From Cyanobacteria bacterium P01_D01_bin.156 (GTDB lineage: Bacteria > Cyanobacteriota > Cyanobacteriia > Phormidesmidales > Phormidesmidaceae), in the NCBI GenBank assembly GCA_039024555.1, contig JBCCQQ010000011.1, positions 32,001 to 96,000 on the forward strand: DNA of 64,000 bases. Reading direction: 5' to 3'. Below the pieces are notes generated by a model. It had not been told where the DNA came from. It saw only the letters and a list, made by a program, of their open reading frames with translations, and ran no database searches. A program made the position numbers and the translations under genes. Below, piece by piece: positions 31,354 to 60,252 of the stretch (the first letter of the stretch is position 1; every line of letters begins with the position of its first letter).

Positions 31354-32304
31354 TTAATATCCCTGTTGTCGATTCACCGCTGTTGGCATCGTCCCCTTGG
31401 ATAGAAACACCATAATGTTCTCCATGGCAATTTTTGACGCTGTGGTTTTGTTGGTAGGTGCAGAAATGTGGGGTAAAACCGTAATCTGCGGATGGCTCCA
31501 AAATACATGGTCCTTGGGTAACGGTTCTTGGGAAAAAACATCTAGCACAGCATGATTGAGCTGGCCTGCATTTAAGGCATTGAGCAACGCTGTGTCATCA
31601 ACAATGGGTCCCCGAGCAAAATTAATTAGAGATGCCCCCTCTGGCATATTGTTAAAGGCATTCGCATCTAACAAACCGTGGGTTTCATGGGTCAGCGGCA
31701 GAAGAATCACCACAATATGGCTACTTTGCAATACGTGTCGCAGACCGTTAACACCAGAACAACTATTAATGCCCAGACAATTGCCTCCACTGCGACTCCA
31801 ACCATAGACGGTAAATCCATTGTCAATCAATCTAGACGCTGCTTTTATCCCCAGCTTGCCAAGGCCAAGGATGCCAACAGTGCGGTCTTGAGGTAACGGC
31901 ACACAATGCTGAGCCCAAATATGTTGTGCTTGCTGCTGACGATATGTGGGCATATCTCGATGCAAATAGAGCACCCAGGCCAACACTGCCTCAGCCATGG
32001 TTTCTGCTAACTGCGGATCGGTCATGCGAACAATCTGTAGCGTATCAGGAACACTTTTCAGCAAGGTTTCTACCCCCGCCCAAAGACTCTGCACCCACTT
32101 TAGGTTAGGCAATTGTTCTAGCTCGGCGGGATCAGGATTGGCTACTATCGCTACCTCAACAATGTGTTTTTCCTCTTCACTACACTCAGCCAAGGGCGCT
32201 ACACAGATATCTAGATCAGCAGGTGCAGCCTGGGTAAGGGCCGTAATCCATCGGTTTCGTTCATTGGCATTAATACGACCAATAAAAGGAATTTTGACAC
32301 TCAT
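31354..32304 (-). CDS. ghrA: Glyoxylate/hydroxypyruvate reductase A (D-2-hydroxyacid dehydrogenase)
   Basis: SLWAGVE, GILGLGKLG, LINFARG, LDVFSQEPL, LPHISA. Confidence 0.85.
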   Translation of the reverse strand: MSVKIPFIGRINANERNRWITALTQAAPADLDICVAPLAECSEEEKHIVEVAIVANPDPAELEQLPNLKWVQSLWAGVETLLKSVPDTLQIVRMTDPQLAETMAEAVLAWVLYLHRDMPTYRQQQAQHIWAQHCVPLPQDRTVGILGLGKLGIKAASRLIDNGFTVYGWSRSGGNCLGINSCSGVNGLRHVLQSSHIVVILLPLTHETHGLLDANAFNNMPEGASLINFARGPIVDDTALLNALNAGQLNHAVLDVFSQEPLPKDHVFWSHPQITVLPHISAPTNKTTASKIAMENIMVFLSKGTMPTAVNRQQGY

Positions 32305-35925: not shown

Positions 35926-35940
35926 GGCTAGAGGAGTTTT

Positions 35941-36009
35941 ATCACCAGCCCGGAGTCTTTCGTTTCTAAAGTCTACAGACAGGAGATTAATTATGTGGTG
36001 GAACACAAC
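35941..36009 (+). pseudogene. Degenerate fragment of a fifth TIR copy
   Basis: Translates ITSPESFVSKVYRQEINYVVEHN versus VISPDSIASKVCGQEIDHAVENN in the intact copies; directly follows the inter-copy junction GGCTAGAGGAGTTTTATC. Confidence 0.85.
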
Positions 36010-36678
36010 ATTCTCAGTGAATTAAAGGCTGCTGACAGAATGGGTACTTTTGCAATTTGTCGTCATCTGGGCTGCCATAGGGCCTGACACACAGGACAAA
36101 CGACAGAGCTGTACCCAGGCAAAGCCACAGCCCTAACCTAAATAGAGCATTCATCTCACTCGATTCGTTGAGGTTGACGGTAGGTTAGTTCAAACGCGGT
36201 AATTGAACTTTAACCGCACCCATGGCGGGGGAATACTTAACAGGCATTGAACCTGTAATCACCTAACACAGAATCGGACAGAATACAATGCAGTCAATTG
36301 TCAGCACTGCAAACAGCTTGATCATGATAAAAGTTTCAGGTGTCATGAGAATCGCCTCCTGGAAATATGCATTGAAACAGAGGCGCGTTCCTTCGGGGAA
36401 AAGACCCTACTTCCGTCTCTTGTGAGTCAGATTTTGACTCTGTAAAAGATGAACGTTATTTATTTCTGTATCCTATGTTACTCCTTTGCCTTTAGGTGTC
36501 AATAGGGAAACTCTGTAATGTCTAAAATTCATAACAAGACGGGTCATATGTCCTCGAAAATCGCCTGGGATAGGCAACGTATGCCCGATAAAAAACAGCT
36601 TCTGTTTTCTTGAGTAGAGAAAAATGTCAGAATAGTGCGTATGTGAAAACTGTAGCATTCTACTGCCATTCATCGGTC

Positions 36679-39648: not shown

Positions 39649-39663
39649 AGGAGTTTTATCACG

Positions 39664-42645: not shown

Positions 42646-42660
42646 AGGAGTTTTATCACG

Positions 42661-45660: not shown

Positions 45661-46950
45661 CTATGAACCCAAAACCATCTCATTAACCGTTTGTCCCATC
45701 TGCAGAGGCGACGCTTTTCTCTTAATTGAAATACAGTCAGCTAAATAATTAGCATCACGCGCAATGCCAGAAAAACGACCCGAACCCCAGGTATACAACC
45801 AAGGTAACCCCAAGAAATAAAGCCCCGACACAGGAGTCACACCCCGCTCATGACCGGGATAACCCTTGCCATCAAAAACAGGAACATCCACCCAGCCAAA
45901 ATTAGAGTGGTAGCCCGTGGACCAAATAACCGTCGAAATATTTGCCGCCTCTAGATCGAGAGAAAGTGTGCTGGTTTCCGGTTGCCACACTGGACAATAG
46001 TCGGCCTCCACAGGTGCATCCAGCTGATGTTTTTCAATGTAGTCATCAATGGTGCTTTTAATGCTTTCAGACACGGCATCGGCCTGATCTAAATTTTGTC
46101 GAAGATTATCTTGAAATGTTAAATCGCTTCCTTGAATACTATCGAGTTTGCCATAGAGCTTCATCCCTTCTAGGGCAAAATGTCGCAAGTCAATCTCTCG
46201 TCCACCATCGCGACCGGTAACATAGTGATTTGTTTTAGTCCGAACAGATTCTTTTTGGGGATGATCATCAATGGACATATCGTAATAGCCCATCTGATCC
46301 AGCCAGTCCACCACATCCTTCCCGCGATACACACGGGGAGACCGGGGCGCACCCCCAACACATAAATGTACCTGTTTGCCTGCCAGGTGCAAGTCTTCAG
46401 CAATTTGGCACCCGGATTGCCCCGTACCTACCACTAGCACAGCCCCATCGGCCAAAGCCTCAGGATTCTTATATTCCGAGGAATGGATCTGGGTAACCGA
46501 TTGGGGTAACCGTTCCGCCATTCTAGGAATTTTGGGCGTATGGTAACCACCGGTGGCAATCACCACCTGGTCAGCAACATAGTGACCAATGGACGTTTCA
46601 ATATCAAATACGTTTTCAGGTTTACTGATTTTCTCAACCGTTACCCCTTCTTTTACTAACGGCTGAAACGATTGAGCATAGTCTTCTATATATTGCACAA
46701 TCTCATCCCGCTGCATAAAGCCGTTGGGGTCACCACCCGGATAGTGATACCCCGGCAACGTGCACTGCCAGTTAGGGGTTACCAGACAAAACGTATCCCA
46801 ACGCTTAGAACGCCACGAATGGGCAATTTTGTGCTTTTCAAAAATTATGTTGTCAATGCCTCGCTGCTTGAGGCAGTAGCTAATGGCTAAGCCCGCCTGA
46901 CCGCCACCGATAATGGCAACTGGAAAATGGGAACTGGTTAATGCTCGCAT
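45661..46950 (-). CDS. nitH: MSMEG_0569-family flavin-dependent oxidoreductase (Nit1C cluster)
   Basis: IIGGGQAGL, RWDTFCLVTPNW, VVGTGQSGCQIAEDL, GLPWLYTWGSGRF; cluster context. Confidence 0.88.
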   Translation of the reverse strand: MRALTSSHFPVAIIGGGQAGLAISYCLKQRGIDNIIFEKHKIAHSWRSKRWDTFCLVTPNWQCTLPGYHYPGGDPNGFMQRDEIVQYIEDYAQSFQPLVKEGVTVEKISKPENVFDIETSIGHYVADQVVIATGGYHTPKIPRMAERLPQSVTQIHSSEYKNPEALADGAVLVVGTGQSGCQIAEDLHLAGKQVHLCVGGAPRSPRVYRGKDVVDWLDQMGYYDMSIDDHPQKESVRTKTNHYVTGRDGGREIDLRHFALEGMKLYGKLDSIQGSDLTFQDNLRQNLDQADAVSESIKSTIDDYIEKHQLDAPVEADYCPVWQPETSTLSLDLEAANISTVIWSTGYHSNFGWVDVPVFDGKGYPGHERGVTPVSGLYFLGLPWLYTWGSGRFSGIARDANYLADCISIKRKASPLQMGQTVNEMVLGS

Positions 46951-47067
46951 GGCTTTAGTAGCTAGAGAATGAGTAACCTGCCCCACTATCCACACTCGTA
47001 AGAGTTCAAAGACAGCAGCATTTGAAGGCAGGGCAATTTGCTTCGATGGCGAAATTGCTATAGTTCA

Positions 47068-47109
47068 ACCATAGGAATCTCAACGGTGAGTACCTGTATC
47101 GAGAGTTAC
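47068..47109 (-). promoter_or_regulatory. NtcA-activated-type promoter for nitH
   Basis: Minus strand reads GTAACTCTCGATAC (GTA-N8-TAC, 47096-47109), exactly 22 nt, then TATGGT (TAN3T -10 box, 47068-47073). Confidence 0.7.
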
Positions 47110-47192
47110 CAAACACACAAGTCTCGGACTATGGTCAGGGCAGATCTGCAGGCGCTAGCTTAAATAACAGCTCATCATAGGTTAATCGCGAT

Positions 47193-47216
47193 TTACCTGC
47201 ACTTTTTGACAGGTAA
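47193..47216. promoter_or_regulatory. Lux-box-like palindrome upstream of nitB
   Basis: TTACCTG-CACTTTTTGA-CAGGTAA, i.e. an ACCTG-N10-CAGGT core, overlapping a TTGACA hexamer (47206-47211). Confidence 0.5.
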
Positions 47217-47361
47217 CTGTCTTTTTAGAATATCTCTCATCAGTATTAAATCTGTTTCCCTGTCTCATTTGTCAGGCTTTATCGCTTTGTAACAACAGAT
47301 ACGAGAAAGAGAACTTAGACCTTTTAAGCTGCTGACAAATCCATATGTGGGAGTAACGTAA

Positions 47362-47844
47362 ATGCCTGAAGTAACCGCTCCAGCTCATCAGGCCGGTGAC
47401 TTTTTCGTTGACTACGAAGAAAAAGTGTTTCCAGATGTTCAAGCAGAACCTGGAGAGAAAGCGCTGGTGGCTTTTCACACGGTCGCTTTTGAGGGGTCCA
47501 TTGGTTTAGTCAATCTGTTACAGGCGACTCGCTTAATCCGTAAAGGGTTTGAAACCTCTGTATTGCTCTACGGTCCCGGTGTGACACTAGGTGTACAGCG
47601 TGGTTTCCCAAAACTAGGTGACGAGGCATTTCCAGGACACTTGGCCATGAATAACCAGTTGGTCAAGGTGATGGAAGAAGGCGGTAAGGTTTATGCTTGC
47701 CGGTTTGCGCTCCAGGCCCTTTATGGTCATGGTGAACCTTCTTTAATTCCCGGCATCACGCCGATTAATCCTTTGGATGTATTGGATATTATTCTGTTAC
47801 ACCGTAAGGAAGGCGCATTTGTTCTGGATACTTGGACAATGTAG
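47362..47844 (+). CDS. nitB: MSMEG_0572/Sll0783-family nitrogen-starvation protein (DsrE-like)
   Basis: [35 protein letters not shown]; directly upstream of the nitrilase. Confidence 0.9.
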
Positions 47845-48067
47845 GAAATCGAAGAAAAATTGTTTAGGCAATTTTCTTTTGAAATCTTGCATTTGGCAAA
47901 TCCTGAACAAGCAGCAGTGCACAAGATTCTATTCTGCTCTTTCTGAAGGGCTTTAGGAGAATTACTGGGGCGGGAGCTTCTACCTAGGAGTATTGGCCCC
48001 CTCTCTCTCAGTCTCTCTTGTGAAGGCTACTCATCTAAAGATTATTGACGTTGAGGATGATAGCAAC

Positions 48068-48162
48068 GGTCCCCCTTAAATAAGGGGACCAACGGAGGGG
48101 TTCTTGATCGTTAACGCTGACATCGAGCCCCCTCCCTGACGGTTCCCCTTAGTAAGGGGAAC
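48068..48162. repeat. Palindromic intergenic repeat (CCCCTT-N3/4-AAGGGG family), inverted copy
   Basis: Two CCCCTT..AAGGGG hairpins; the reverse complement of 48121-48162 closely matches 50611-50653. Confidence 0.75.
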
Positions 48163-48406
48163 TATTAGCAGGCTATTTTGAGAGCCATGAATCTCAAGAG
48201 TTTTAGCTATTGAACCATGCATACTCGTTACCCTCATAACGAGGAAATGAATATCGTCAAATCTCATAACGATATTTTTTCAGAACCATTCATAGCTGTT
48301 CTCTCAAACGTCAACGTAGGCCAATCGGCACCATTGATTTTGACCTCTTGAATGTTCTTTATATCTCAAATAGAATGATCGTTCTATTTCATACGCTTTA
48401 GCCACT

Positions 48407-49423
48407 ATGGACTACTCTCGCACAGTGAGAGCGGCGGCTGTACAGATTGCCCCTGTGCTGCATAGTCGTTCCGGCACAATGGAAAAGGTACTTAAAGCCA
48501 TTGATGATGCGGCCAAGGAGGGCGCACAGTTAGTGGTTTTTCCAGAAACCTTTGTGCCCTATTACCCATATTTTTCCTTTGTGTTGCCAGCGGTGCTGAT
48601 GGGTAAGGAGCATATGAAGCTCTACGAGGAAGCGGTGGAAGTGCCGGGACCGGTTACGGAAGCCGTCAGTGCAGCAGCGAGAACCCACGGTATAGTAGTT
48701 GTTCTAGGGGTAAACGAACGTGATAAGGGCTCTCTTTACAACACTCAGCTGATTTTTGATGCGGATGGTAGCTGTCTGCTGAAACGACGCAAGATTACGC
48801 CCACCTACCATGAGCGCATGGTGTGGGGACAGGGGGATGGCTCTGGGCTGCAGGTGTGTGATACGGCGGTGGGCCGCGTTGGTGCCCTGGCCTGTTGGGA
48901 ACATTACAATCCCCTGGCGCGATACAGCCTAATGGCGAACCATGAACAGATTCACTGCGCCCAGTTTCCTGGCTCCATGGTCGGGGAGATTTTTTCAAGC
49001 CAAACAGAGGTGACCCTACGCCACCATGCGCTAGAGTCCGGTTGTTTTGTGGTGAATTCTACCGGTTGGCTGACGCCTGACCAGGTCAGTGAGATTGCCC
49101 CCAATGAAGGTTTAGAGAAGGTTTTACGGGGTGGCTGCTATACGGCCATTATTAGCCCAGAAGGGGTGCCGCTGTGTGAACCGATTCGGGAAGGTGAGGG
49201 AATTGCGATCGCAGACCTAGATTTCTCTCTGATCACCAAACGTAAGCGGATGATGGACTCCGTGGGCCACTATGCTCGACCTGACTTATTACAGTTATCG
49301 GTGAATAAAGCCGCCTATTCTGTTGTTTCTTCTGATATAGCAACACCGGCTGAAGATAGTGGGGCCTGTTATCCACCTGAATCATCTTTTCCAGAGGCTT
49401 CTCCTGAGACAAATCCGATGTAA
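48407..49423 (+). CDS. nitC: Nit6803/Nit1C-family nitrilase
   Basis: Catalytic triad E (VFPETF), K (RRKITPT), C (LACWEH); [10 protein letters not shown]. Confidence 0.93.
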
Positions 49424-49477
49424 AACATTCGGCCTCCAACACATTTCAATTTTAGATATATCTCTTTTTATCCGACC

Positions 49478-50563
49478 ATGAACCAAAAGCAGGTGATTAC
49501 CGAGCTTCAAACCAAAGGCCTTAACCTGGTGACCGACACCGTTGGCGCATCCGGGCGAAAAGGGGGCGCGGGGCCATCGGACCACAAAGCCATCACCATT
49601 GGTGAAACCACGTTCATGGTACCGGTATACACCGATGGAGCTGCCCAGTCTCCCTACGGTGTTAACAACGACTCGGGTCAGGCTGTTTTAACCAAAGATA
49701 ATCAGGCCATTACCGAGCTAGACTTTCCAGAGAAACCCAAGTTTTACGACCTCACCACAGCAGAGGGCATCCCTTACTGGAAAATTGCCCTGTTGCACAG
49801 TCGTAATGTTCTCGCCACCACCGTTCTTCAAACGTGCATCCGCTACGACAATCGCAAAACCGCCTGTCAGTTCTGCGCCATTGGACAATCCTTAGAAGCC
49901 GACCGCACCATTGCTAAAAAAACACCTGAACAACTGGCAGAAGTGGCGGAAGCAGCGGTGCGTCTGGACGGCATAGAAAATATGATCATGACCACAGGAA
50001 CGCCCAACGTCACCGATCGGGGGGCCGCTTACCTAACAGAATGTGCCCAGGCGATTCGGGCTCGGGTCAGTCATCTCCCCATACAGGCCCAGTGCGAACC
50101 CCCCAATGATTTTACCTGGTTTGAACGCATGCGCTCGGCGGGCATTGATAGTTTAGGCATGCATTTAGAAGCCGCCGACCCTGAAGTGCGAGCTAAAATT
50201 ATGCCGGGTAAGGCAAAGGTGCCACTTTCCTATTATTTCAAAGCGTTTGAAGCCGCAACAAAGGTCTTTGGCCGAGGACAGGTCAGCACCTACTTGTTGG
50301 CAGGGCTGGGGGACAGTCAAGAAACGCTGCTAAACGTGAGTGAGCGCCTCATTGATATTGGGGTGTATCCCTTTGTGGTTCCCTTTGTGCCCATCGGGGG
50401 AACGCCGTTGGCAGACCATAAGCCCCCGAGCAGTGACTTTATGTACGACCTGTATCAGGGTATTGGGCAAATGCTAAAGCAGGCAAATCTGTTGTCCAGT
50501 GAGATGAAGGCTGGCTGCGGCAAGTGTGGAGCTTGTTCAGCGTTGTCGTTGTTTGAGAGTTAA
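49478..50563 (+). CDS. nitD: MSMEG_0568-family radical SAM protein
   Basis: GGAGPSDHK, Cx9Cx2C (CIRYDNRKTACQFC), C-terminal CGKCGAC. Confidence 0.9.
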   Translation: MNQKQVITELQTKGLNLVTDTVGASGRKGGAGPSDHKAITIGETTFMVPVYTDGAAQSPYGVNNDSGQAVLTKDNQAITELDFPEKPKFYDLTTAEGIPYWKIALLHSRNVLATTVLQTCIRYDNRKTACQFCAIGQSLEADRTIAKKTPEQLAEVAEAAVRLDGIENMIMTTGTPNVTDRGAAYLTECAQAIRARVSHLPIQAQCEPPNDFTWFERMRSAGIDSLGMHLEAADPEVRAKIMPGKAKVPLSYYFKAFEAATKVFGRGQVSTYLLAGLGDSQETLLNVSERLIDIGVYPFVVPFVPIGGTPLADHKPPSSDFMYDLYQGIGQMLKQANLLSSEMKAGCGKCGACSALSLFES

Positions 50564-50610
50564 AAGATTTTATAAACCGATGGCCCATCAGGGACTCGGT
50601 GATTTTTTGG

Positions 50611-50712
50611 GTTCTCCTTAGTAAGGGGAATCGTCAAGGAGGGGGAATCGATGATTAGCACAGACGACAAAGACCCCTCCGCCTACGGCACCTCCCCTTA
50701 CCAAGGGGAGGA
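50611..50712. repeat. Palindromic intergenic repeat (CCCCTT-N3/4-AAGGGG family)
   Basis: 30 nt AAGACCCCTCCGCCTACGGCACCTCCCCTT (50670-50699) identical to 57346-57375, followed by a 3-nt loop and AAGGGGAGGA. Confidence 0.85.
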
Positions 50713-50759
50713 CGTTGCAGAACATAATCCTTGCTTTTTGTTTTTCGCTTTCTAAAACT

Positions 50760-51272
50760 ATGAAAAAACGTACCTATAGTTTTCAACTGGCCCTTTCTAA
50801 ACCCGATATTGCCGATTATTTTAATTTACGGCAACAAATTTTCTGTGCAGAACAGGGGCTTTTTCAAGACCACGATCGCGATTCCATCGATGAGACCTCC
50901 TACCCGATTGTCTCTATTGCCCATACGCTAGAACAGCCCGACCAGGTTGTCGGAGTAGTGCGCATCTATGAAGAAAAGCCACGACTCTGGTATGGCGGAC
51001 GTTTGGGGGTACATCCAGACTTTCGTCGGGTCGGTCGCATTGGTAAGGGGCTGATTCAAAAAGCAGTGACAACAGCAAATACCTGGGGTTGCGATCGCTT
51101 CCTAGCTACGGTTCAATTGCAAAACGTGCGTTTCTTCACCCGACTGCACTGGCATAGTTTGGAGGAGATTGAGGTGATGGGGCACCCTCATCATTTGATG
51201 GAAGCCGATTTGGCATACTATCCTGCAACAGATCAGCCACGTCCAGTGTTACCGCTTAAACAAGTTGCTTAG
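50760..51272 (+). CDS. nitE: MSMEG_0567/Sll0786-family GNAT protein
   Basis: LRQQIFCAEQGLF, VVGVVRI, WYGGRLGV, FLATVQLQN; cluster order. Confidence 0.88.
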   Translation: MKKRTYSFQLALSKPDIADYFNLRQQIFCAEQGLFQDHDRDSIDETSYPIVSIAHTLEQPDQVVGVVRIYEEKPRLWYGGRLGVHPDFRRVGRIGKGLIQKAVTTANTWGCDRFLATVQLQNVRFFTRLHWHSLEEIEVMGHPHHLMEADLAYYPATDQPRPVLPLKQVA

Positions 51273-51711
51273 GAAAGTCATTACTAATAAAAAATTTTCC
51301 AAATTTGGTAGGGATAACCTGATTAATCGACACCGCCGTAACCCCAACCTTACCGATATTTTCGATATGAAAGATAACTTCCTTTCGGGGGAACCCCAAT
51401 ATGCCTAACTAAGATAACTTGATTATTTCCGAAAGGGGAGTCTAGGCCCCCACATTAGGAGGGGTTCGGGGAGGAAAGCCCTGAGCAACATTTATCACCA
51501 TTTGCCATTTTGCTGCTGTACTTTTTAGATATTGATTAAAAGCAAAACCGGTTGCGTGGGGTCCCTCCGAGTTCCCTTTCCGGAAGTCGTTACATTATCC
51601 TCATCAGCATATTGGGGCTTCCCTATGTCCAGGGCGTTCCGCCGCCCTACAACCCTACGGAAAAATATAAAAGATATCCCTCGTAGGCGGTTTGAGTGAT
51701 CGGTAAGGTAG

Positions 51712-51745
51712 TTTAGAATTTTGCGCGCTGCGACAAAATTCTAAA
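51712..51745. repeat. 12-bp stem-loop between nitE and nitF
   Basis: TTTAGAATTTTG-N10-CAAAATTCTAAA. Confidence 0.6.
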
Positions 51746-51849
51746 AAAGGTAGGTTATCTACTTTCTGATAAATAGGCAAAATCATCGTTCGGATTATGA
51801 TTTCTTTTAACTCTTGAGAACGTCAGAAAATATAGCTTTATAACAACTA

Positions 51850-52821
51850 ATGAGCGAAAGCCTTTCTGAGCTAGTTTCTTCTCTCCAAGAATCTGTCAGC
51901 ATCCTTAACAAAAAAGATATCCAAACTGCAGCCAATACCATTGGCCAATATGTCCCCTCTGCCAACGGACAACCTATCCACCTTGGCGATGACTGCGCCG
52001 CTATTCCCGACAATGACAGCTATCTCCTCCTCGCTGCCGAAGGCATCTGGCCCCAGCTTGTTACCCAAGAGCCTTGGTTTGCCGGATGGTGCGCCATTAT
52101 GGTCAACATTTCCGATATTGCTGCCATGGGGGGCACTCCCATCGCCGTCGTTGATGCTCTGTGGAGTCAGTCGGTTAAGGCTAGCACGCCCCTATGGCAA
52201 GGTATGCAAGCAGCTGCAAAGGCTTACAATGTGCCGATTGTGGGCGGCCATACTAATTGCCATAGTCCCTACGATGGTCTTGCCGTTGCCATTCTCGGTC
52301 GGGCGCAGAGACTTATTACCAGCTTTGATGCCCAGCCTGGGGATGATTTGGTCATGGTGGTCAATATGGCAGGTAGTTACTACGGCGACTATCCATTTTG
52401 GAATGCAGCGACAACAGCAGAGCCGGAGTTGTTGCAACAGCACATTGCGCTACTGCCTAAACTGGCAGCAAGTGGCCTATGCAAGGCGGGTAAAGACATT
52501 AGCATGGGTGGGCTGGCAGGTACGTTGCTGATGCTGACCGAAGCATCAGGTGTAGGCGCAGTGTTAGATCTGGATTTAGTACCTCCTCCATCGGGTGTGC
52601 CGTGGCGGAAGTGGTTGACTAGCTTTCCTAGTTTTGGTTTTTTGTTCAGTGTATCGCCAGAGAATTTGGGGCAGGTACAGGCGTTATTTCAGCCCCATGG
52701 GTTGATGTGTAAGGCGATTGGTAAAGTGACAGCCGGGTCTCAGGTGATTTTTCAGCAGACCGGAGCACAAGAAGTATTCTGGGATTCCAGTTATCCATTA
52801 ACAGGGTTCGGAAAAAGATAA
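51850..52821 (+). CDS. nitF: Sll0787-family AIR-synthase-like protein
   Basis: LGDDCAAI, VNISDIAAMGG, IVGGHT, KDISMGG, FPSFGFL. Confidence 0.9.
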   Translation: MSESLSELVSSLQESVSILNKKDIQTAANTIGQYVPSANGQPIHLGDDCAAIPDNDSYLLLAAEGIWPQLVTQEPWFAGWCAIMVNISDIAAMGGTPIAVVDALWSQSVKASTPLWQGMQAAAKAYNVPIVGGHTNCHSPYDGLAVAILGRAQRLITSFDAQPGDDLVMVVNMAGSYYGDYPFWNAATTAEPELLQQHIALLPKLAASGLCKAGKDISMGGLAGTLLMLTEASGVGAVLDLDLVPPPSGVPWRKWLTSFPSFGFLFSVSPENLGQVQALFQPHGLMCKAIGKVTAGSQVIFQQTGAQEVFWDSSYPLTGFGKR

Positions 52822-52825
52822 TCTT

Positions 52826-52949
52826 GTAGGGGTGGTGCCTCGTGCCCACCCTGCGACATTGGGCGGTACCAACCGAGATTTGATTTATACGCGGTTAGCA
52901 AAATGATCATCTGTAGGTATTGAGGGCACCCACGAGGGGATGCCCCTAC
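52826..52949. repeat. GTAG-type REP doublet (REPIN-like)
   Basis: GTAGGGGTGGTGCCTCGTGCCCACCCT ... AGGGCACCCACGAGGGGATGCCCCTAC in inverted orientation between convergent genes. Confidence 0.65.
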
Positions 52950-53539
52950 GGGTTTTCTCTAAATGCCCTAAACGCAACAGCAATTCGTCTACCCTGCAAT
53001 TTCGCAGATTTCGGTACCTCATGGGTCCATGCCAAATTTGTCCCATAGGGCATTACAAAAACAGTGCCATGGTCTGCCGGAAAATCTTGATATCCCTTTC
53101 TTTGCCAGGGACGCAACCGAAACACCCTAGACTGCCCCAACGACAAAGTAACAATGGGTGCGCCGTCGAGCATATTCTGGGTACTGTCGCGGTGTTTGCC
53201 GATGTAGTGGCCCAGTTTGCCGTCGTACCAGGTTAGTAAGATGCCATTAAGGCGGGCATCGATGGTGGTTTTGGCCCAGTGCCAGATGGGGTGAATCTGG
53301 TCGGGAACGGGCAAGGCGGAGTTGGTGGCACCGGAGTAGCTATAGGCTTTATTGTAGGCTTGTTCCCAGCGTGGGGTGGCGACGGTGCGACCGTGGATTT
53401 TGATGGTGTTGTAGTTTGGTGGATGGAGTGCCCAGAGGGTTTCGAACTGTTGGATAGTGGGTAAAAGGGCATCTGGCAGGCTGCCCTGCCAGAGATGGTG
53501 GTGAGGATCTAAAGAATGGCGTTGAAATTCGGGATACAT
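52946..53539 (-). CDS. AlkB-family 2OG-Fe(II) oxygenase
   Basis: YIGKHRD (HxD), IVTLSLG, WTHEVPK, RIAVAFR (Rx5R). Confidence 0.85.
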   Translation of the reverse strand: MYPEFQRHSLDPHHHLWQGSLPDALLPTIQQFETLWALHPPNYNTIKIHGRTVATPRWEQAYNKAYSYSGATNSALPVPDQIHPIWHWAKTTIDARLNGILLTWYDGKLGHYIGKHRDSTQNMLDGAPIVTLSLGQSRVFRLRPWQRKGYQDFPADHGTVFVMPYGTNLAWTHEVPKSAKLQGRRIAVAFRAFRENP

Positions 53540-53572
53540 GAGTGATTATCCACATTATGCATAGATCCCGAA

Positions 53573-53660
53573 GGCCCCCTTTTCCCAATCCTGGGGGAGA
53601 CTAGACTCAAAGCCCCCAGAATATAGCCCAAGGGGCATTCAAGAAAGGGGGGTTGGGGGC
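53573..53660. repeat. C/G-tract intergenic repeat element
   Basis: GGCCCCC...GGGGGAG...GCCCCCAGAAT...GGGGGGTTGGGGGC; a similar string lies at ~51436-51472. Confidence 0.45.
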
Positions 53661-53706
53661 AAATTCGAAGAAGTCAAACAGCGCAATATTCAAAGACTCC
53701 CACACC

Positions 53707-56388
53707 TCAGCCAATCTGTTCTTCTAACTCCGCAATCTCTCCATTTCGCCGATGATATCCAACAATCTCCCCTTCCTTAAACAAGCCAATGTACTCCGGG
53801 GGCTCCCATTCATCCCTTGTAGACACATAGGGTATATAAGGCTGCTCTGTTTTTTTAACCAAAGCTTTTGCCTCGTCAAGTTTAATGCGAGCTTGGGCCT
53901 TATCGTCCAGAATCAGCGCTAAGCGACAGCGCTCAAGAGCCGCTTCGATTTGAAAGATAACCATATTGCTGCGACCTGAAATTTGTTCAATTTCAGTAAG
54001 ATCGCGTTCGGCTTGTTCCAAATAATCTTTTTTTCCTAATTGTGCGCTTACTCTCCATAATACTGAGCGCGACAATAAACTTATAGAAGTGTACTGTTGA
54101 GTCCCTGATTGACGAAGTAAGATAACACTTTTATCAAGATATTCTGTGGCTTTTTTAAGGGTATCTGTATGAATTGATTTGCTGTCACTAAATCCAAATG
54201 TCTTTCGCATTTTAATTATTACTTCCAACAACCAATTATTGCCTAGTGTTAAATTGCTGAGTCCCATATGGTATATGGATTTCTTTTGGTCAGAAATTTC
54301 AAATGAAAGTTTTGCTAATTTACGAACTTTCTGGCAACGAGACAAAGCTATATTAATTCTATTATGCTTTGATTTCGTTTTATTTTTAAGAATAGCTCTT
54401 GAAATTTTTTCCATTAAAAAATCATAGTAATAGAACCCCTGTAATGAATAGAGAAATGGGGTTTTTGGTTGATATTTAATTTGTCTTTTTTCTGCATCCT
54501 TAAAGACTTCCAAAGCCTCATCATATCGAGCAGCCTGATGAAGAGTCTGAGCAAACCTAACTCTTCCAAATATTTGTTTAGCTGAATTATGACTACAATC
54601 AGCTAGTTCCATACATTGTTCAGCCACTTGCACAGCACTGGCTATATTTCCTTGCGACCAGTACAATCCACTAAGGTTGTTCGAACCTTGAGCTGCATTT
54701 CTAATATCCCCTAACAATATTCTGGCTTCTATACCACGCTGTATTGGTTCTGTTGCTTCTGCCAAATGGCCTAAAGTTTGCAAGCAAAAACCAGCTTCAT
54801 CAAGAAGCCAAGCATGATCTTCGGCAGTCAATCCAGGCACGGTTGAGTGCCAAGATTTCTCAAAAAACATATTGACTAGAACTAACTGATTACTAACTGC
54901 TCCAAGAGTAAAAATAGAGAAGTGCAAGTTATCGCGCCGAATACGTTTTCTGAATATATGATCGTAAGCTTGTTTGTGTAAGTTAGCTTTGCAGCCATGG
55001 ACTACAGCATGATACAGCGGCATCATTTCTTTTAGCGTATCTGGTAGTTCTGGAGTTGCTTTTTTTAGATGTTCATAAATACGAGAATGTGCTTTTTGAG
55101 TTTCACTTTTGTAATGAGTAGAAAGTTGGGTAGAAAAGTACTCACGAATAAGTGGATGAGCATCCAAAAAAAGTGGAATTTCAGCTTGTTTATTTATTCT
55201 ACTAGAGTAGCTATCTGTACTCAATAAACCATACTCTATTAGGTTGGAGATAGCCCAATTCCATTCCTCAGACTTGAGCCCTACTAGAATGTCAGTAAGC
55301 CCGGAAATAGCTGGAGCTACGCATACTGCTTCCAGACAATCTACTTCGGCAGGACGATCAAAAAGGCCCAATAATCTTAAAATTGATAGCTCTGGGCCTT
55401 CGCCTAACCATATCTCGTATTTTTCCACTAATTTACGAGCATGACCACCTTGTAACTGATCTACCTGTGTCAAATCCAATTCTCTGATGCGACGAACATC
55501 ACCATAACAAGCTTTTCGTAAATAATTGCCTAGTAGCCTTAGCGCTAGTCCATGCCCATGTACCTGTTTTGAAGCCTCTTCTAATTCCTGTGGGAGTCCT
55601 TTGACTCCTAATGCCTTTAACAATACAGCTCCTGTTTTCTCTGATAATGTCTCTAACTCAATCTCTTGAGCTGTAGGAATATCAGGGACAGAATATCGAG
55701 TTGTAATGATACATAGTCCTGAGTTGTCTGCTGCTAATTCTCGTACCAGAGCCTTTAGACCTTGATCCTTAATTCGGCCTGTTTCAGCTACCGCTGTTGC
55801 CCCCCATTGCAATGGTTCCATTCCGTCTAGAATCAATAAAGTCTTATGATGCCGTACTAACCTTGCCAAGCGTTCGCCTTTATCCCAGGTAGAACCCATT
55901 TCTGGACTGAGATCACCAAAAAATTGCAAAGCTCTATCAATAAACACATCTGCTGATGAGTGAGTATCATCTTGCGAACCTTGGCTGTAAAACGAATGAC
56001 CTAAGACGTACTGAGCACCACGCCAATCATCACGCTGAAGACTTTCAAGCCATGCAGCTACCAATGAGCTTTTGCCAACACCTCCAAAGGCCACAAGGCT
56101 TATCAACGTAGTATTTGGATCATCCCAAGCTCTATCAAGTTGTTCTAGTTCCTTTTCTCGACCAACAAAATGTGAAACAGCAGGCGGTAAATGGGCAATA
56201 GAAATAACAGGAGCATTTTTATTGAGATTTGATTGCAATGGCTTTGACAGCTCAGCGATTTTGGTATGACATTCAGTAATTTTCTGATGCAGTTCGAACT
56301 TTTGAGCCGCATCAGCTGCAATAGCTTCCTGAGCTTGCAAATACTCAAGCTTCTTTTGCCAGACCTCAAGAGCTTGTTGACTTGCCAT
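53707..56388 (-). CDS. STAND-class (NLR-like) ATPase with N-terminal helical coupling module and C-terminal TPR-like sensor
   Basis: FVGREKEL, Walker A GGVGKS, Walker B LLILDGME, sensor-1 IITTR, GHGLAL (GLPLA-equivalent), HPLIRE winged-helix motif, then helical repeats. Confidence 0.85.
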   Translation of the reverse strand: MASQQALEVWQKKLEYLQAQEAIAADAAQKFELHQKITECHTKIAELSKPLQSNLNKNAPVISIAHLPPAVSHFVGREKELEQLDRAWDDPNTTLISLVAFGGVGKSSLVAAWLESLQRDDWRGAQYVLGHSFYSQGSQDDTHSSADVFIDRALQFFGDLSPEMGSTWDKGERLARLVRHHKTLLILDGMEPLQWGATAVAETGRIKDQGLKALVRELAADNSGLCIITTRYSVPDIPTAQEIELETLSEKTGAVLLKALGVKGLPQELEEASKQVHGHGLALRLLGNYLRKACYGDVRRIRELDLTQVDQLQGGHARKLVEKYEIWLGEGPELSILRLLGLFDRPAEVDCLEAVCVAPAISGLTDILVGLKSEEWNWAISNLIEYGLLSTDSYSSRINKQAEIPLFLDAHPLIREYFSTQLSTHYKSETQKAHSRIYEHLKKATPELPDTLKEMMPLYHAVVHGCKANLHKQAYDHIFRKRIRRDNLHFSIFTLGAVSNQLVLVNMFFEKSWHSTVPGLTAEDHAWLLDEAGFCLQTLGHLAEATEPIQRGIEARILLGDIRNAAQGSNNLSGLYWSQGNIASAVQVAEQCMELADCSHNSAKQIFGRVRFAQTLHQAARYDEALEVFKDAEKRQIKYQPKTPFLYSLQGFYYYDFLMEKISRAILKNKTKSKHNRINIALSRCQKVRKLAKLSFEISDQKKSIYHMGLSNLTLGNNWLLEVIIKMRKTFGFSDSKSIHTDTLKKATEYLDKSVILLRQSGTQQYTSISLLSRSVLWRVSAQLGKKDYLEQAERDLTEIEQISGRSNMVIFQIEAALERCRLALILDDKAQARIKLDEAKALVKKTEQPYIPYVSTRDEWEPPEYIGLFKEGEIVGYHRRNGEIAELEEQIG

Positions 56389-56460
56389 ACTTCTTCTTCA
56401 TCCCATTACCTGCAAGCACCATATACCTATCTATTTGATTAACCTCCATCCTGACTCGAT

Positions 56461-57120
56461 TCATTCACTCAGTTCACGATTTTTTTGCTGAGCCTCTTCA
56501 ATCTGTTTTTTCAGTGCAAACTTCTGACTAGGATCAACTGTAATCGCTTCCTGCTCTTGCAAAAACGCTAGCTTCTCTTGCCAAATAGCCACCGCGTCAC
56601 TGCAGGCCAGTGACGCGGTGGCTGATTGTGGGGCAACCGCTGCCGACTGAGAAGCTATAGCTTTCGACAAGGGTGGATGATGGGAAGCCACCCGAAGCGC
56701 TCGAATCAGTTTTTGAAAAACGACGTCTCGCCGGTCATCTGGAAATAGATCTACAAATTGAAGCCGATCCAACGTACGAATACCATCGATCTCGATCATC
56801 GGAATCTCACACTCCGATAACCGCACCGGAATCAAAAAAATATCACCAGGCGGATAATCCCGTAGCATATTGATCGCATCCAACGCCTCTGGATAAATCC
56901 CAGATGTAGTCCGGGCTGACGTTTCTTTTGATAAACAGAGTAAGACCGCATAGGCATCCCGCATCGCCTTACGAATTTCTAGCTTCCAATCCTGCCCCGG
57001 CAGAATATCTTGATCCCACCAGACTGATTCGCCTGCAGCGGTCAGCTCACCATGGAGACGGCCTACCTCATCAGCATTGTCTCGACAGTAGGAGAGAAAA
57101 ACATGCTTCTTAGCCATCAA
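56461..57120 (-). CDS. TIR-domain protein with C-terminal helical coupling module
   Basis: HVFLSYCRDN, VWWDQDILPGQDW, VLLCLS...GIYPE, FLIPVRL, FVDLF; Ala/Ser/Pro linker; 44-aa tail homologous to the STAND N-terminus. Confidence 0.9.
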   Translation of the reverse strand: MMAKKHVFLSYCRDNADEVGRLHGELTAAGESVWWDQDILPGQDWKLEIRKAMRDAYAVLLCLSKETSARTTSGIYPEALDAINMLRDYPPGDIFLIPVRLSECEIPMIEIDGIRTLDRLQFVDLFPDDRRDVVFQKLIRALRVASHHPPLSKAIASQSAAVAPQSATASLACSDAVAIWQEKLAFLQEQEAITVDPSQKFALKKQIEEAQQKNRELSE

Positions 57121-57289
57121 CTTTCAGGGGGCACAATTTACCAGCTACTCCCAGTTTGCGCGGGGATTCTTGGAGTGTCAAGGTATGTAGTTACATTGAT
57201 ATTTAAGTTTTGTAGCCATTCGAATTTAGGCCGCTGCATCGCTCTTTTTTGCGACGGTTCCCCTAAAGCCCTGCGGGCATGGGCTAAAG

Positions 57290-57388
57290 CCTAAGGCAAG
57301 GGAAACCAACGGAGGGGTCTCCTCAATCGCTAGCGCCAAATACCGAAGACCCCTCCGCCTACGGCACCTCCCCTTGGTAAGGGGAGGA
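57290..57388. repeat. Palindromic intergenic repeat (CCCCTT-N3/4-AAGGGG family)
   Basis: Shares 30 identical nt with 50670-50699 and ACCAACGGAGGGGT with ~48088. Confidence 0.85.
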
Positions 57389-57483
57389 AGTTCTACAACA
57401 TTTCTTTCGCAGGAAAACTAACCTTTCTCAGGAACTCTGCAAGTACTCACCAACCCCTGATAGCATCAGAAAAAACCTTCCCC

Positions 57484-58617
57484 ATGCCCCTCCGCATCGC
57501 CCTCCTCACCTACTCCACCAAACCCCGTGGCAGCGTCATCCACACCCTAGAACTCGCCCAGGCCCTCGCCGAACTCGGCCACCACCCCTGCGTTTTCGCC
57601 CTCGATAAAGACAACCAAGGCTTTCACCGCCCCACCCCGTTCAACACCTACCCAGTCCCCGCCGCCACCTGCAACAAAAGCATCGACCAGCTCATCCAAC
57701 AACGCATCCAAGAATTTGTCGCCTTTTTCCAAAACCACCCACAACAGTACGACATCTACCACGCCCAGGACTGCCTCAGCGCCAATGCCCTAGCCATCCT
57801 CAAAGCCCAAGGCCGCATTCCCCACTTTGTACGTACCGTTCACCACATCGAAGACTTTCAAAGCCCCTATCTACAAGACTGCCAAGAGAAATCTATCTAC
57901 CAGCCAGACCGCTGCCTATGCGTCAGCCATATCTGGCAACAGGCACTGGCAAAAGACTATGGCATCCACGCCCATCGAGTAATCAACGGCGTTAGCAGTC
58001 GGTTTTCTGCCCAACTCGATGGTTCAGAAACCCAGTTAGCACAAGCCTACGGCATTCACGATGGCCCTATTTATCTCACCGTGGGCGGCATCGAACCCCG
58101 CAAGAATTCGATTAATTTACTCAAGGCATTTCACCAGGTCAAACAGCAACAGCCCCAGGCTCAGCTAGTCATTGCCGGTGGGGCCACCCTGTTTGACTAT
58201 CAACCCTACCGAGACAAGTTTATGGGGTTGTTAGAATCTTACGATTTAACCGATAGTCTGGTGCTGCCCGGTGTGGTTCCCGACAAGGATTTGCCCACAC
58301 TCTACCGGCTGGCCGATGTGTTTGTGTTTCCCTCAGTGCAGGAAGGCTGGGGTCTGGTGGTACTAGAAGCGATCGCATCTAATCTCCCCGTCCTCACCTC
58401 AAATCAGCCACCGTTTACTGAGTTTTTGTCACCTGACTCAGCCATGCTGGTCAATCCTGAAAATGTGGATGCGATCGCATCCGCCATGGTCACACTTCTC
58501 AATCCTGATATTGCCCAGCCGCTAGTTCACAACAGCCGCTCTATTGTCGAGACTTACAGCTGGAAACGATCCGCCCAAATGCACCTGGACCTCTATACTG
58601 AACTGGTTTCTAGCTAA
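57484..58617 (+). CDS. MSMEG_0565-family glycosyltransferase (GT4)
   Basis: YSTKPRGSVIH, HAQDCLS, RTVHH, GGIEPRKN, FPSVQEGWGLVVLEA. Confidence 0.9.
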   Translation: MPLRIALLTYSTKPRGSVIHTLELAQALAELGHHPCVFALDKDNQGFHRPTPFNTYPVPAATCNKSIDQLIQQRIQEFVAFFQNHPQQYDIYHAQDCLSANALAILKAQGRIPHFVRTVHHIEDFQSPYLQDCQEKSIYQPDRCLCVSHIWQQALAKDYGIHAHRVINGVSSRFSAQLDGSETQLAQAYGIHDGPIYLTVGGIEPRKNSINLLKAFHQVKQQQPQAQLVIAGGATLFDYQPYRDKFMGLLESYDLTDSLVLPGVVPDKDLPTLYRLADVFVFPSVQEGWGLVVLEAIASNLPVLTSNQPPFTEFLSPDSAMLVNPENVDAIASAMVTLLNPDIAQPLVHNSRSIVETYSWKRSAQMHLDLYTELVSS

Positions 58618-58622
58618 TGCAT

Positions 58623-59855
58623 TTAGTCTCTTAGAAACGTACGCTGTACTTGGGTGGTGGAAACAACCTGGCCGTTTTTGATGGTGGTGCGACTTGGGGG
58701 CGCGGTTGCGATCGCTGCCGAAACAGATGGGGCATCCAGAATCACGAGATCTGCCACATTACCTGGTGCAATTTTGTGATTACTCACACCAATGGCGCGG
58801 GCAGCCTGGGTTGTGACCATCTCTAAACACCGCTGATGGCTTTGGGCTGTTCCCATCTGTAGCGTTTGCCCAAGCAAGTTGCACATCTTTAGTACATCCC
58901 CATCTCCAAACGGGGTAAACAGATTTTGCACATTGTTGGTGGCAATGCCCACCGTCACCCCCCTATCCATTAGCTGATGAATGGGGGCAACGCCACGACG
59001 CATATTGTGGGTATCCCTGCGGGCCATCATATAGAGATCCGTAGCTGGCAATGCCAAAACAGAAATACCCGCTTCCTGCAGCATCGTCGATGATTCCTGA
59101 AGCTCTTGGGGAGTAAGACCTGCCAATTTTGTCATATGCCCTAAACACACTCGCCCCTGCCAGCCCCGCTTCAATGTCTCCTCAACTACCAGCGGCAACA
59201 GCAGTGGAGCATCATCATCTAGAAAATCCAGGTGAAAGTCAACATTGCAGTCAAACTCCTGGGCAAGGTCTAACACAATGCGAATGTTCTCATCCGGGGC
59301 CGGATCAACATAGGGGGCAGAGCCAATCACATCGCCACCCATTAACATCGCCTGTCGTAATAGATTTGTCGTATTTGGCTGGTTAGTAATGCCCTCCTGG
59401 GCAAAGATGGCCAACTGCAGCGTAAGTCCCCAGGCATAGTCTTGCTTTAGCGGCAGCAGGGCTTCTAGCGCTGTTAGTTGAATGATTGGATCTACTTCCA
59501 CATGGGTACGCATCAACGTTGTACCAAAGGCAATCTCATTTTCAATCACCCGTTGCGCCCGGGTTTGAATATCTTCAATGGTAAATTCTCGCTTCAGTTT
59601 GCCAGTTTCAGCTAAGGCTTCTTGAAACGTGCCAGTCTCAGCAGGGCGCTGGGCAAGTAATAGGGCTTTATCCAGATGCAGGTGGCCATCTACTAAACCA
59701 GAGATAACCAGTTTTCCCTCAACGTTTATGGTGTTTTGGGCAGCTAGTTCCATATTCGGCGCAACCTGTTTGATTACCCCTCCTTCTATAAAAAGAGACC
59801 AGAGGCCGCTGCGGTCAGCTAAGGTGGCGTTATCAATTTTAAGCGTTGCTGACAT
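58623..59855 (-). CDS. Amidohydrolase family protein (cytosine-deaminase-like)
   Basis: DGHLHLDK (HxH), RTHVEVD, DFHLD, LGHMT, ADLVILD. Confidence 0.85.
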   Translation of the reverse strand: MSATLKIDNATLADRSGLWSLFIEGGVIKQVAPNMELAAQNTINVEGKLVISGLVDGHLHLDKALLLAQRPAETGTFQEALAETGKLKREFTIEDIQTRAQRVIENEIAFGTTLMRTHVEVDPIIQLTALEALLPLKQDYAWGLTLQLAIFAQEGITNQPNTTNLLRQAMLMGGDVIGSAPYVDPAPDENIRIVLDLAQEFDCNVDFHLDFLDDDAPLLLPLVVEETLKRGWQGRVCLGHMTKLAGLTPQELQESSTMLQEAGISVLALPATDLYMMARRDTHNMRRGVAPIHQLMDRGVTVGIATNNVQNLFTPFGDGDVLKMCNLLGQTLQMGTAQSHQRCLEMVTTQAARAIGVSNHKIAPGNVADLVILDAPSVSAAIATAPPSRTTIKNGQVVSTTQVQRTFLRD

Positions 59856-59967
59856 GGCTGTTCCTGTGAGTGATTTTGTCTCTGTGGCATCAGTTATAGG
59901 GCCACTGTTTCCGTTATAGTGAAATATGCCGCATTGAATATTCGCTCTTTATTTTTTCCCTATTACC

Positions 59968-60252
59968 ATGCCCGAAATTCGGTTTCATATCCAATGGCCC
60001 GATGGACAACAGGAAAGTTGTTATTCTCCATCCCTAGTTGTGAAAGATTATTTTCAGGTGGGAGAATCCTATACAATTACTGATTTTTTGCAGCGCTCTA
60101 GAGAATCTCTTCAAATTGCCAGCGAGCGAGTTAAAGCTAAGTATGGCTTTCCCTGCGGTTTAGCCATGGGGCAATTGCAAAAAATTGAAGATACGGCTCA
60201 GCAATATTTAGAACAACCCGATAGCAAGGTAACCGTTCTACAGTTTCAATAG
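59968..60252 (+). CDS. nitG: MSMEG_0570-family nitrogen-starvation protein
   Basis: MPEIRFHIQWPDG...CYSPSLVV...ASERVKAKYGFPC. Confidence 0.9.
   Translation: MPEIRFHIQWPDGQQESCYSPSLVVKDYFQVGESYTITDFLQRSRESLQIASERVKAKYGFPCGLAMGQLQKIEDTAQQYLEQPDSKVTVLQFQ

Follow-up and report, generated by a model that had tools for sequence, protein, structure and literature searches.

How does a sensor protein that carries no enzyme of its own pass its signal to an effector? The question is raised by two co-oriented genes in a 64,000-nucleotide stretch of contig JBCCQQ010000011.1 from Cyanobacteria bacterium P01_D01_bin.156 (contig positions 32,001 to 96,000; hereafter the window, whose own numbering is used throughout). 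One gene encodes a TIR-domain protein and the other a STAND NTPase with TPR-like repeats, and the two proteins share a module of 44 residues. We propose with moderate confidence, on the strength of sequence comparison, that they form a two-gene NLR-like conflict system of the effector-associated domain (EAD) kind, in which the STAND-TPR protein would be sensor and switch, the TIR protein the effector, and the module, a helical hairpin, an adaptor replacing a covalent link. The anatomy of the pair, the selection on both hairpins, the recurrent adjacent pairing with exchangeable effectors and the interchange with fused forms are observed directly.

Two proteins sharing a helical hairpin

Both open reading frames (ORFs) are unbroken and lie on the minus strand, the TIR gene running from 57120 (TTG) to 56461 and the STAND-TPR gene from 56388 to 53707, with a gap of 72 nucleotides. 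The original prediction started from an ungapped match between the last 44 residues of the TIR protein (56595-56464) and residues 6-49 of the STAND protein, and this match holds: 22 of the 44 positions are identical, and the best ungapped match over 2000 shuffles of the STAND sequence reaches 14 of 44. The STAND protein had also been described as lacking an enzymatic effector, and indeed nothing other than the module and a short linker precedes its NTPase. The DNA of the two copies is identical at 83 of 132 positions (29, 31 and 23 of 44 at the first, second and third codon positions), so that the copies stem from an old duplication and not from a recent repeat. The genome (6.6 Mb, 99% complete) yielded no further match to the module.

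In an AlphaFold2 model of the module alone, helices span residues 2-24 and 28-49 with a predicted local distance difference test (pLDDT) score of 91, and the model of the full STAND protein places them at 2-23 and 27-48. Among orthologues, the ratio of nonsynonymous to synonymous substitution rates (dN/dS) is about 0.05-0.21 for the TIR-borne copy and about 0.04-0.19 for the STAND-borne copy. These values are similar to those of the TIR domain itself (about 0.06-0.16 over four orthologues), and the adjoining linkers go up to about 1. Purifying selection acts on both copies. In 155 copies taken from unrelated proteins a Trp, a Leu, a Phe and an Ile are near-invariant and the most conserved positions are mainly hydrophobic; the conserved hydrophobic residues that lie off the heptad core of the hairpin suggest a putative binding face. 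The module is a real, conserved domain, and it is probably functional. A fold search with it returned generic hairpins only (top Z 8.6, many ties), such searches being uninformative for helical models. The one match to its profile in a sequence search of the Protein Data Bank was a designed coiled coil (E 0.82), and the ESM Atlas gave three unnamed clusters at 0.80-0.81 with no usable named match, which serve as leads only.

Adjacent pairing with exchangeable effectors

A gene for an effector with the module is directly followed by a module-first gene in 23 of 47 metagenome loci, and these 23 collapse to 16 non-redundant pairs at 90% DNA identity. The second gene encodes a STAND or iSTAND protein in 12 of the 16. 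The first, where it can be named, encodes a TIR, SEFIR, PNPase or CHAT protein, so that the adjacent pairs with different effectors that had been anticipated do exist. The remaining 24 loci are not such pairs, several of them lying at a contig edge or having a broken partner. One locus (L129) encodes in order a PNPase-module protein, a module-iSTAND protein, a MoxR-like AAA protein and a vWA-FGE protein, a canonical ternary system in which the module fills the slot of an EAD. Module copies in adjacent genes appear slightly more similar to each other than non-adjacent ones (0.537 vs 0.502; p=0.013 by permutation, uncorrected for kinship; 13 of 19 pairs once close kin are dropped).

Within the order, the module pair is present in 5 of 173 genomes, this one included, and in four of the five the pair makes up the only two module matches. 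One of the pairs (L003), additional to the four at the STAND loci counted below, has lost its NTPase and keeps both modules; its TIR gene contains a stop. In a further relative (L004), about 500 nucleotides with internal repeats are inserted between the TIR and STAND genes (L004:3907-4430), the STAND-borne module is without the conserved Trp, and the STAND gene is frameshifted.

Interchange of paired and fused forms

Of the 8000 homologues scored, 3677 belong to the STAND family at E<=1e-20, and its architectures were read from the best 120. Fifty-six of these carry a TIR domain first and no module, 8 carry the module first and no TIR, 2 have a C-terminal TIR only, and 43 have other or missing N-termini. 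TIR, CHAT, PNPase and DUF4062 are the effectors fused across the family. Within the order, this STAND clade occupies 11 loci in 10 of the 173 genomes: four module-linked pairs, five TIR fusions without the module, one CHAT fusion, and one fusion to a small other domain. The five TIR fusions place the same TIR clade directly upstream of the NTPase via a short linker; two are intact and three broken. Four fusions (P0156, P0167, P0172, P0177) carry this TIR clade at 61-74% identity, and in P0156 the TIR is 74% and the STAND 57% identical to the pair in the window. Since close relatives fuse the same TIR and STAND clades without it, the module takes the place that a covalent linker has elsewhere. 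It was not found in any of the five searched genomes holding module-free relatives of this TIR. In an NTPase tree (FastTree, 130 of 130 rows), the 13 module-first rows fall in at least six places among TIR-fused rows, which we do not read as a direction of change.

The putative TIR effector and STAND sensor

The TIR protein was predicted to keep a Glu at the likely catalytic position, and alignment agrees. The Glu of its GIYPE motif, E77 counted from the ATG, is conserved at 90% or more in 35 aligned rows, and alignment of a family profile with AbTir and further TIRs of solved structure matches it with the Glu of WxxxE; one of the 35 rows (L036) is a non-TIR region that adds noise to both the conservation and the AbTir alignment. 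By the same alignment E77 falls on helix C, where enzymatic TIRs have their catalytic Glu. As far as the accessible text of the source goes, E208 is the catalytic Glu of WxxxE in AbTir, and the WxxxE aromatic residue is tied to cyclic products, the position being aromatic in 12 of 12 cyclising TIRs (10.1101/2022.05.07.491051). In the present clade this position, four residues before the Glu, is a Gly, with a one-residue gap nearby that makes the register slightly uncertain, and the aromatic residue that marks producers of cyclic ADP-ribose isomers is not found. Because of this Gly, plain NAD+ hydrolysis to linear ADP-ribose is the likelier putative output of the TIR domain than a cyclic signal. 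Distant STAND-TPR proteins and an LRR-GTPase-type protein (L006, L008, L009, L011) also end in a TIR domain of this clade, which is, on these grounds, a mobile effector.

The full STAND model has a pLDDT of 90.5, and its best fold matches are 6mfv, an archaeal STAND-TPR protein (E 6e-13), and Apaf-1 (E 5e-9). As in other STAND-TPR proteins, the switch residues K106, D188, R231 and H411 are conserved and helical repeats are present. NCBIfam models gave sub-threshold matches only. In a 61-row STAND alignment, the switch departs from the family at 4 of 136 conserved columns, which is the family median, and the TPR region (residues 431-790) at 27 of 103, for a median of about 5%. The residue make-up of this region is AT-biased, with a share of Phe, Tyr, Met, Ile, Asn and Lys (FYMINK) of 0.29 vs 0.13-0.19. 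The GC content at third codon positions (GC3) is 0.10-0.36 in the middle of the STAND gene, 0.42-0.47 at its C-terminus, 0.45 in the TIR gene and 0.48-0.62 in the neighbours; the proportion of synonymous differences (pS) is 0.78-0.92 in the middle, where synonymous sites are saturated, vs 0.30-0.67 in the flanks. Neither AT-richness nor saturated synonymous distance is seen in the TIR gene, in the module or over the last 100 STAND codons. The STAND gene thus looks like a mosaic, with an AT-rich middle set between resident-type ends. A swapped-in sensor with a new specificity and incipient decay fit the AT-rich middle and the diverged repeats equally well. Nearly the same middle has been lost from the STAND gene of the syntenic relative L003 (L003:3374-3977).

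Proposed mechanism and alternative explanations

A mechanism can be proposed for the pair. An invader-derived ligand would be bound by the TPR region, and the STAND protein would exchange nucleotide and oligomerise. The clustered N-terminal hairpins of the STAND protein would then bind the hairpin of the TIR protein, probably as four-helix bundles, and the contacts would be made by the conserved hydrophobic residues off the heptad core (STAND positions 9, 16, 23 and 31). Once clustered, the TIR domains would cleave NAD+, more likely to linear ADP-ribose, and the arrest or death of the cell would protect its neighbours. A role in defence is suggested by the effector repertoire and by the patchy, often broken distribution. 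If the binding is true, a plain helical hairpin acts as an inflammasome-style adaptor in bacteria. The original prediction had likened the module to death-fold adaptors; since it is a two-helix hairpin, the comparison survives as an analogy of role and fails as one of fold. The locus is close to the simplest test case for EAD coupling, with two genes, NAD+ loss as output and natural fused controls (P0156), and a module profile would account for many STAND proteins that seem to lack an effector and would indicate which enzymes they pair with. A broader proposal, which we put forward tentatively and with some doubt, is that the hairpin is an adaptor family in its own right: a plug of about 45 residues, neither death fold nor amyloid, found in at least 859 clusters, by which oligomerising STAND, iSTAND and VMAP hubs would recruit in trans an NADase, a nucleosidase or a protease, these effectors being interchangeable. 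Lineages would flip repeatedly between the plugged and the fused state and swap the sensor cassette between ends that stay conserved. After death folds and amyloid, the hairpin would then be the third structural way of coupling NLRs to effectors in bacteria.

The coupling of sensor to effector through the hairpin is supported by the adjacent pairs with swapped effectors, the module-free fused relatives, the purifying selection and the EAD slot of L129. Several observations weigh against it. Eleven of the best 120 STAND homologues are STAND-TPR-TIR-module fusions, in which the module is kept though the TIR is attached. In 4 of the 16 non-redundant pairs the second gene encodes a non-STAND protein (FGE, TIR-calcineurin, astacin or a WD40 protein). 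Single occurrence, named in the original prediction as a ground for doubt, is seen in part: lone copies (L102, L105, L109, L112) have 4.5-5 kb of partner-free flank, and genome G196 holds four copies with no adjacent pair seen. C-terminal copies exceed N-terminal ones in the best 150 module proteins (102 vs 27). As to the window itself, its pair ranks 13th of 19 for cognate similarity, its sensor repeats diverge more than those of any other row scored, none of the PADLOC 2023 models (Avs and NLR models included) matches its STAND protein, and its immediate neighbours form a nitrilase metabolic cluster with no defence genes.

Some of these points would suit restraint instead of recruitment: the TIR hairpin would self-associate, and the resting STAND hairpin would hold the TIR domains apart until sensing releases them, following a guard or antitoxin logic. 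The 11 module-keeping fusions and the many single C-terminal copies favour this arrangement, as does the toxicity that followed a CARD-like deletion in a bacterial NLR-like protein, read as auto-repression in the accessible text (10.1101/2023.05.28.542683). We consider restraint unlikely all the same, though deserving of attention, as module-free TIR-STAND fusions are the commonest form (56 of 120), which fits activation by proximity, and as the module also joins sensor-like non-enzymes, FGE and iSTAND. The L003 locus, with both modules and the NTPase deleted, is undecisive here since its TIR has a stop. The extreme divergence of the repeats, in turn, means that this copy may be decaying, so that the family design would be real and the present sensor dead. 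The departures and AT-biased make-up of its TPR region point that way, and so does the frequent breakage of relatives (three of five fused and two of five paired loci in the order). Against this distinctly improbable outcome stand two intact frames, a switch that stays at the family median of departures despite saturated synonymous sites, and the high confidence of the model; moreover, a swapped-in sensor fits as well.

The surroundings of the pair raise the idea of a regulatory signalling pair unrelated to invaders and tied, for example, to the nitrilase cluster. L002 and L003 sit in the same kind of cluster, the STAND protein has weak matches to the AfsR regulator, and defence and non-defence STAND clades are interspersed in what is accessible of a recent survey (PMC13581612). 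This is very unlikely given that unrelated genes surround L001, L004, L012 and the metagenome loci, that the clade is patchy (10 of 173 genomes) with TIR, CHAT, PNPase and DUF4062 as fused effectors, and that Pfam reveals no DNA-binding domain in the STAND protein. Finally, the shared stretch could have no role as protein and be a mere DNA trace of an ancestral TIR-module-STAND gene that was split by a duplication, or else serve as a recombination handle. As direct repeats the copies lie 222 nucleotides apart, and a single module lies between effector and NTPase in some proteins, such as the TIR-module-AAA_35 protein of L036. This last explanation is hardly credible, being largely refuted by the purifying selection that acts on each copy; the near-invariant Trp, Leu, Phe and Ile argue in the same direction, as does a DNA identity that is no higher than 63% and drops most at third positions. 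Recruitment of the TIR effector through the hairpin remains the reading we prefer.

Relation to known systems

The principle is not new. In the accessible text of the original descriptions, EADs are small domains at the termini of core components and effectors (Kaur 2020, PMC7159879; Kaur 2021, PMC8195603), they are placed in the iSTAND-MoxR-vWA-type slot (PMC7159879), and their coupling is described as predicted or proposed, with homotypic binding predicted (PMC7159879, PMC8195603, PMC10907252). A locus with an EAD8-nSTAND1-FGE protein and an EAD8-trypsin protein is also on record in the text available to us (PMC10907252). The module shows three of the traits by which Kaur 2020 defines an EAD. 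It is small, non-enzymatic and mostly alpha-helical (two helices, pLDDT 91); its copies are terminal, one on a core component (STAND, iSTAND or VMAP-C) and the other on a neighbouring enzyme (16 non-redundant pairs in 47 loci, L129, P0148); and the same enzyme is fused directly to the core elsewhere (P0156, P0167, P0172, P0177; L165, L170). On a fourth trait, a closer similarity between adjacent copies, the difference is slight (0.537 vs 0.502) and the pair of the window ranks 13th of 19. Single proteins can carry the module together with EAD1, EAD8 or EAD9. It differs from the described EADs in that no Pfam EAD model matches this two-helix hairpin of about 45 residues, and in that its commonest setting is a plain two-gene effector/STAND pair and not a ternary system.

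The closest relation is to EAD9. A direct assignment to that family was rejected: its model PF19962 (cut-off 25 bits) matched neither copy at E up to 1 and up to 10 (scored candidates), none of 114 module proteins had an EAD9 match on the module at E<=5e-4, and comparison of the module with 13 core EAD9 sequences gave probabilities of 2-8%, near those of shuffles. The sequences of a fringe subfamily, with PF19962 scores of 22-31 bits, are clear homologues of the module. A profile of four fringe sequences found only by PF19962 (an earlier five-sequence set was partly circular, as three of the five were also module-profile finds) was aligned with HHalign to the 155 modules at a probability of 97 and to core EAD9 at 94.5; reversed and heptad-shuffled controls stayed at or below 27% (33% with the five-sequence set), and the alignment has a 7-column gap. 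In the genome, the two best matches to the same profile are the copies of the pair, at 27.9 and 16.4 bits over a background that does not exceed 10.3. The partners are similar too (TIR, CHAT, iSTAND), whereas the module is about 15 residues shorter and has an invariant Trp and Phe. Linked to EAD9 only through the fringe subfamily, it can be placed as an EAD9-like, unmodelled hairpin subfamily, and it is probably a shortened, remote EAD9 relative; a separate family is possible, and we hold it to be clearly the lesser chance. P0083 has an EAD9 match and the module as separate stretches. In L052:442-2316, a CHAT protein with the fringe EAD9-like domain is followed by an iSTAND protein with the same domain and then by a MoxR-like gene, and the fringe subfamily there holds the slot that the module has in L129. 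The authors' table, as accessible, shows no profile link between EAD9 and death-like domains (PMC8195603).

Other bacterial systems use different devices to the same end. In BASS pairs, the accessible text places a motif C-terminally on an effector (Bell, TIR2, CHAT, hydrolase or cyclase) and N-terminally on an adjacent collinear NLR, and all-in-one fusions of the same effectors exist (10.1101/2020.01.06.895854). BASS motifs form amyloid and are beta-rich; membership was rejected for the module, which is all alpha-helical according to prediction only. Avs and other NLR-like STAND proteins (PMC13581612) have the same switch and TPR-like C-terminus, and most of the present STAND family carries an N-terminal effector in cis, whereas here the effector is on a separate gene and no PADLOC Avs or NLR model matches. 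The CARD-like gasdermin/NLR systems offer a tested small adaptor common to an NLR-like protein and a separate enzyme; as described in the accessible text, they differ by a six-helix death fold, a protease cascade, and an NLR copy that is C-terminal and seemingly repressive (10.1101/2023.05.28.542683). Death-like adaptors (bDLD, CARD-like) were likewise rejected, the module having two helices in 45-50 residues where a six-helix bundle is expected.

No description of the module was found in the literature, including a motif search of the Kaur 2021 supplements (file 13 excluded, file 4 in part), although the Kaur 2020 Figure 1 source data may list it; the accessible portions of PMC13581612 and 10.64898/2026.10.19.760177 contain none. 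The novelty expected at the outset is accordingly reduced. The concept is already published (EADs, the EAD8-STAND and EAD8-trypsin pair, BASS pairs) and is carried out here by an unmodelled tag, no Pfam model matching the module and no PADLOC model the STAND protein.

Distribution of the module

A nine-sequence module profile searched against 1.84 billion representatives matched 859 clusters at E<=0.001, with 336 left at E<=1e-10, so that the module is a widespread mobile domain. The best 150 proteins hold 159 copies: 102 C-terminal, 27 N-terminal, 19 internal and 11 alone. In a Pfam scan of the 114 longer of these proteins, the partners were at least 32 TIR_2, 5 PNPase, 5 CHAT, 4 trypsin and 4 EAD1, with single cases of EAD8, EAD9, VMAP-C (P0148, a module-VMAP-C protein), SIR2, SLOG, calcineurin-like, hydrolase and COR. 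Fifty of the 114 were without a Pfam match, and none of the 114 was matched on the module itself. SEFIR is also among the effectors fused to it. Viral contigs yielded no copy of the module, and neither did a sample of 301 genomes of the phylum to which genome G571 belongs, a search that had no positive control; acidobacterial proteins carry it.

There are two further settings. In L048:604-3140, the gene after a TIR-module gene encodes an NB-ARC-TPR protein that lacks the module, and the two share a short Gly/Asn/Thr-rich stretch. We take this stretch to resemble an amyloid signalling motif, in which case both coupling devices may sit on one effector. The other is a conserved gene of 160-185 residues whose product begins with a divergent module-like stretch; the gene immediately downstream starts with the module and varies at its C-terminal end (L037, L039, L041, L042, L135, L136, L151, L152, L159); no significant Pfam or NCBIfam match was obtained for those scanned.

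Features of the locus and its surroundings

The features of the two genes are collected in the table. Pfam recognises TIR_2 on the TIR protein (70.5 bits, E 2.3e-19) and AAA_16 on the STAND protein (33.4 bits), with NB-ARC, NACHT and TPR at sub-threshold level only. The TIR protein probably has 218 residues, since homologues start at the ATG at 57117. In the STAND switch, the names of the sensor-1 and His motifs are those that we presume to apply.

Features of the TIR-STAND pair, in window positions
Feature	Position	Strand	Details	Basis
TIR-module gene	56461..57117	-	218 aa from ATG at 57117; 219 aa from TTG at 57120	ORF, Pfam, homologue starts
TIR domain	56707..57102	-	residues 7-138 of 219-aa ORF	Pfam TIR_2
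Glu77 codon (GIYPE)	56887..56889	-	likely TIR catalytic residue; Gly at WxxxE aromatic position	conservation, AbTir alignment
TIR-to-module linker	56599..56673	-	variable, Ala/Ser/Pro-rich	orthologue identity 8-50%, dN 0.35-1.09
C-terminal module copy on TIR protein	56464..56595	-	two-helix hairpin	AlphaFold2, dN/dS
Intergenic spacer	56389..56460	-	72 nt; in frame here, with three stops
Module-STAND NTPase-TPR-like gene	53707..56388	-	893 aa	ORF, Pfam AAA_16, model, fold matches
N-terminal module copy on STAND	56242..56373	-	aa 6-49	sequence match, model helices, dN/dS
STAND switch	55101..56202	-	nucleotide-binding domain, helical and winged-helix part	motif positions, column conservation
STAND switch motifs			Walker A K106 (codon 56073-56071), Walker B D188, sensor-1 R231, His411
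TPR-like helical repeat region	53851..55098	-	presumed sensor, strongly diverged	Pfam, model, column counts
AT-rich middle of STAND gene	54019..56238	-	~aa 51-790, apparently replaced from another lineage	GC3, pS

Read-through or programmed frameshifting between the two genes was rejected, given the three stops in the spacer and its length of 70-73 nucleotides in three relatives, which does not keep the frame. The frameshifts in fused relatives (an 11-nucleotide insertion and a 1-nucleotide deletion) are separate events. Promoter and terminator scans gave chance-level results only. Short repeats, dispersed across many contigs, lie on both sides of the pair (about 57295-57392 and 53546-53622).

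The pair sits inside a cluster of the MSMEG_0565-0572/sll0783-0787 family (45661-60252), which we take to be the one named Nit1C, with nitrilase, radical SAM, GNAT, AIR-synthase-like and glycosyltransferase genes. The pairs of L002 and L003 share this site, and the other relatives lie elsewhere. Elsewhere in the window (32938-45639), four tandem paralogues of about 990 residues have near-identical N-terminal TIR domains, the last of them with a transmembrane-like stretch and WD40-like repeats; they are possibly an expanding receptor array.

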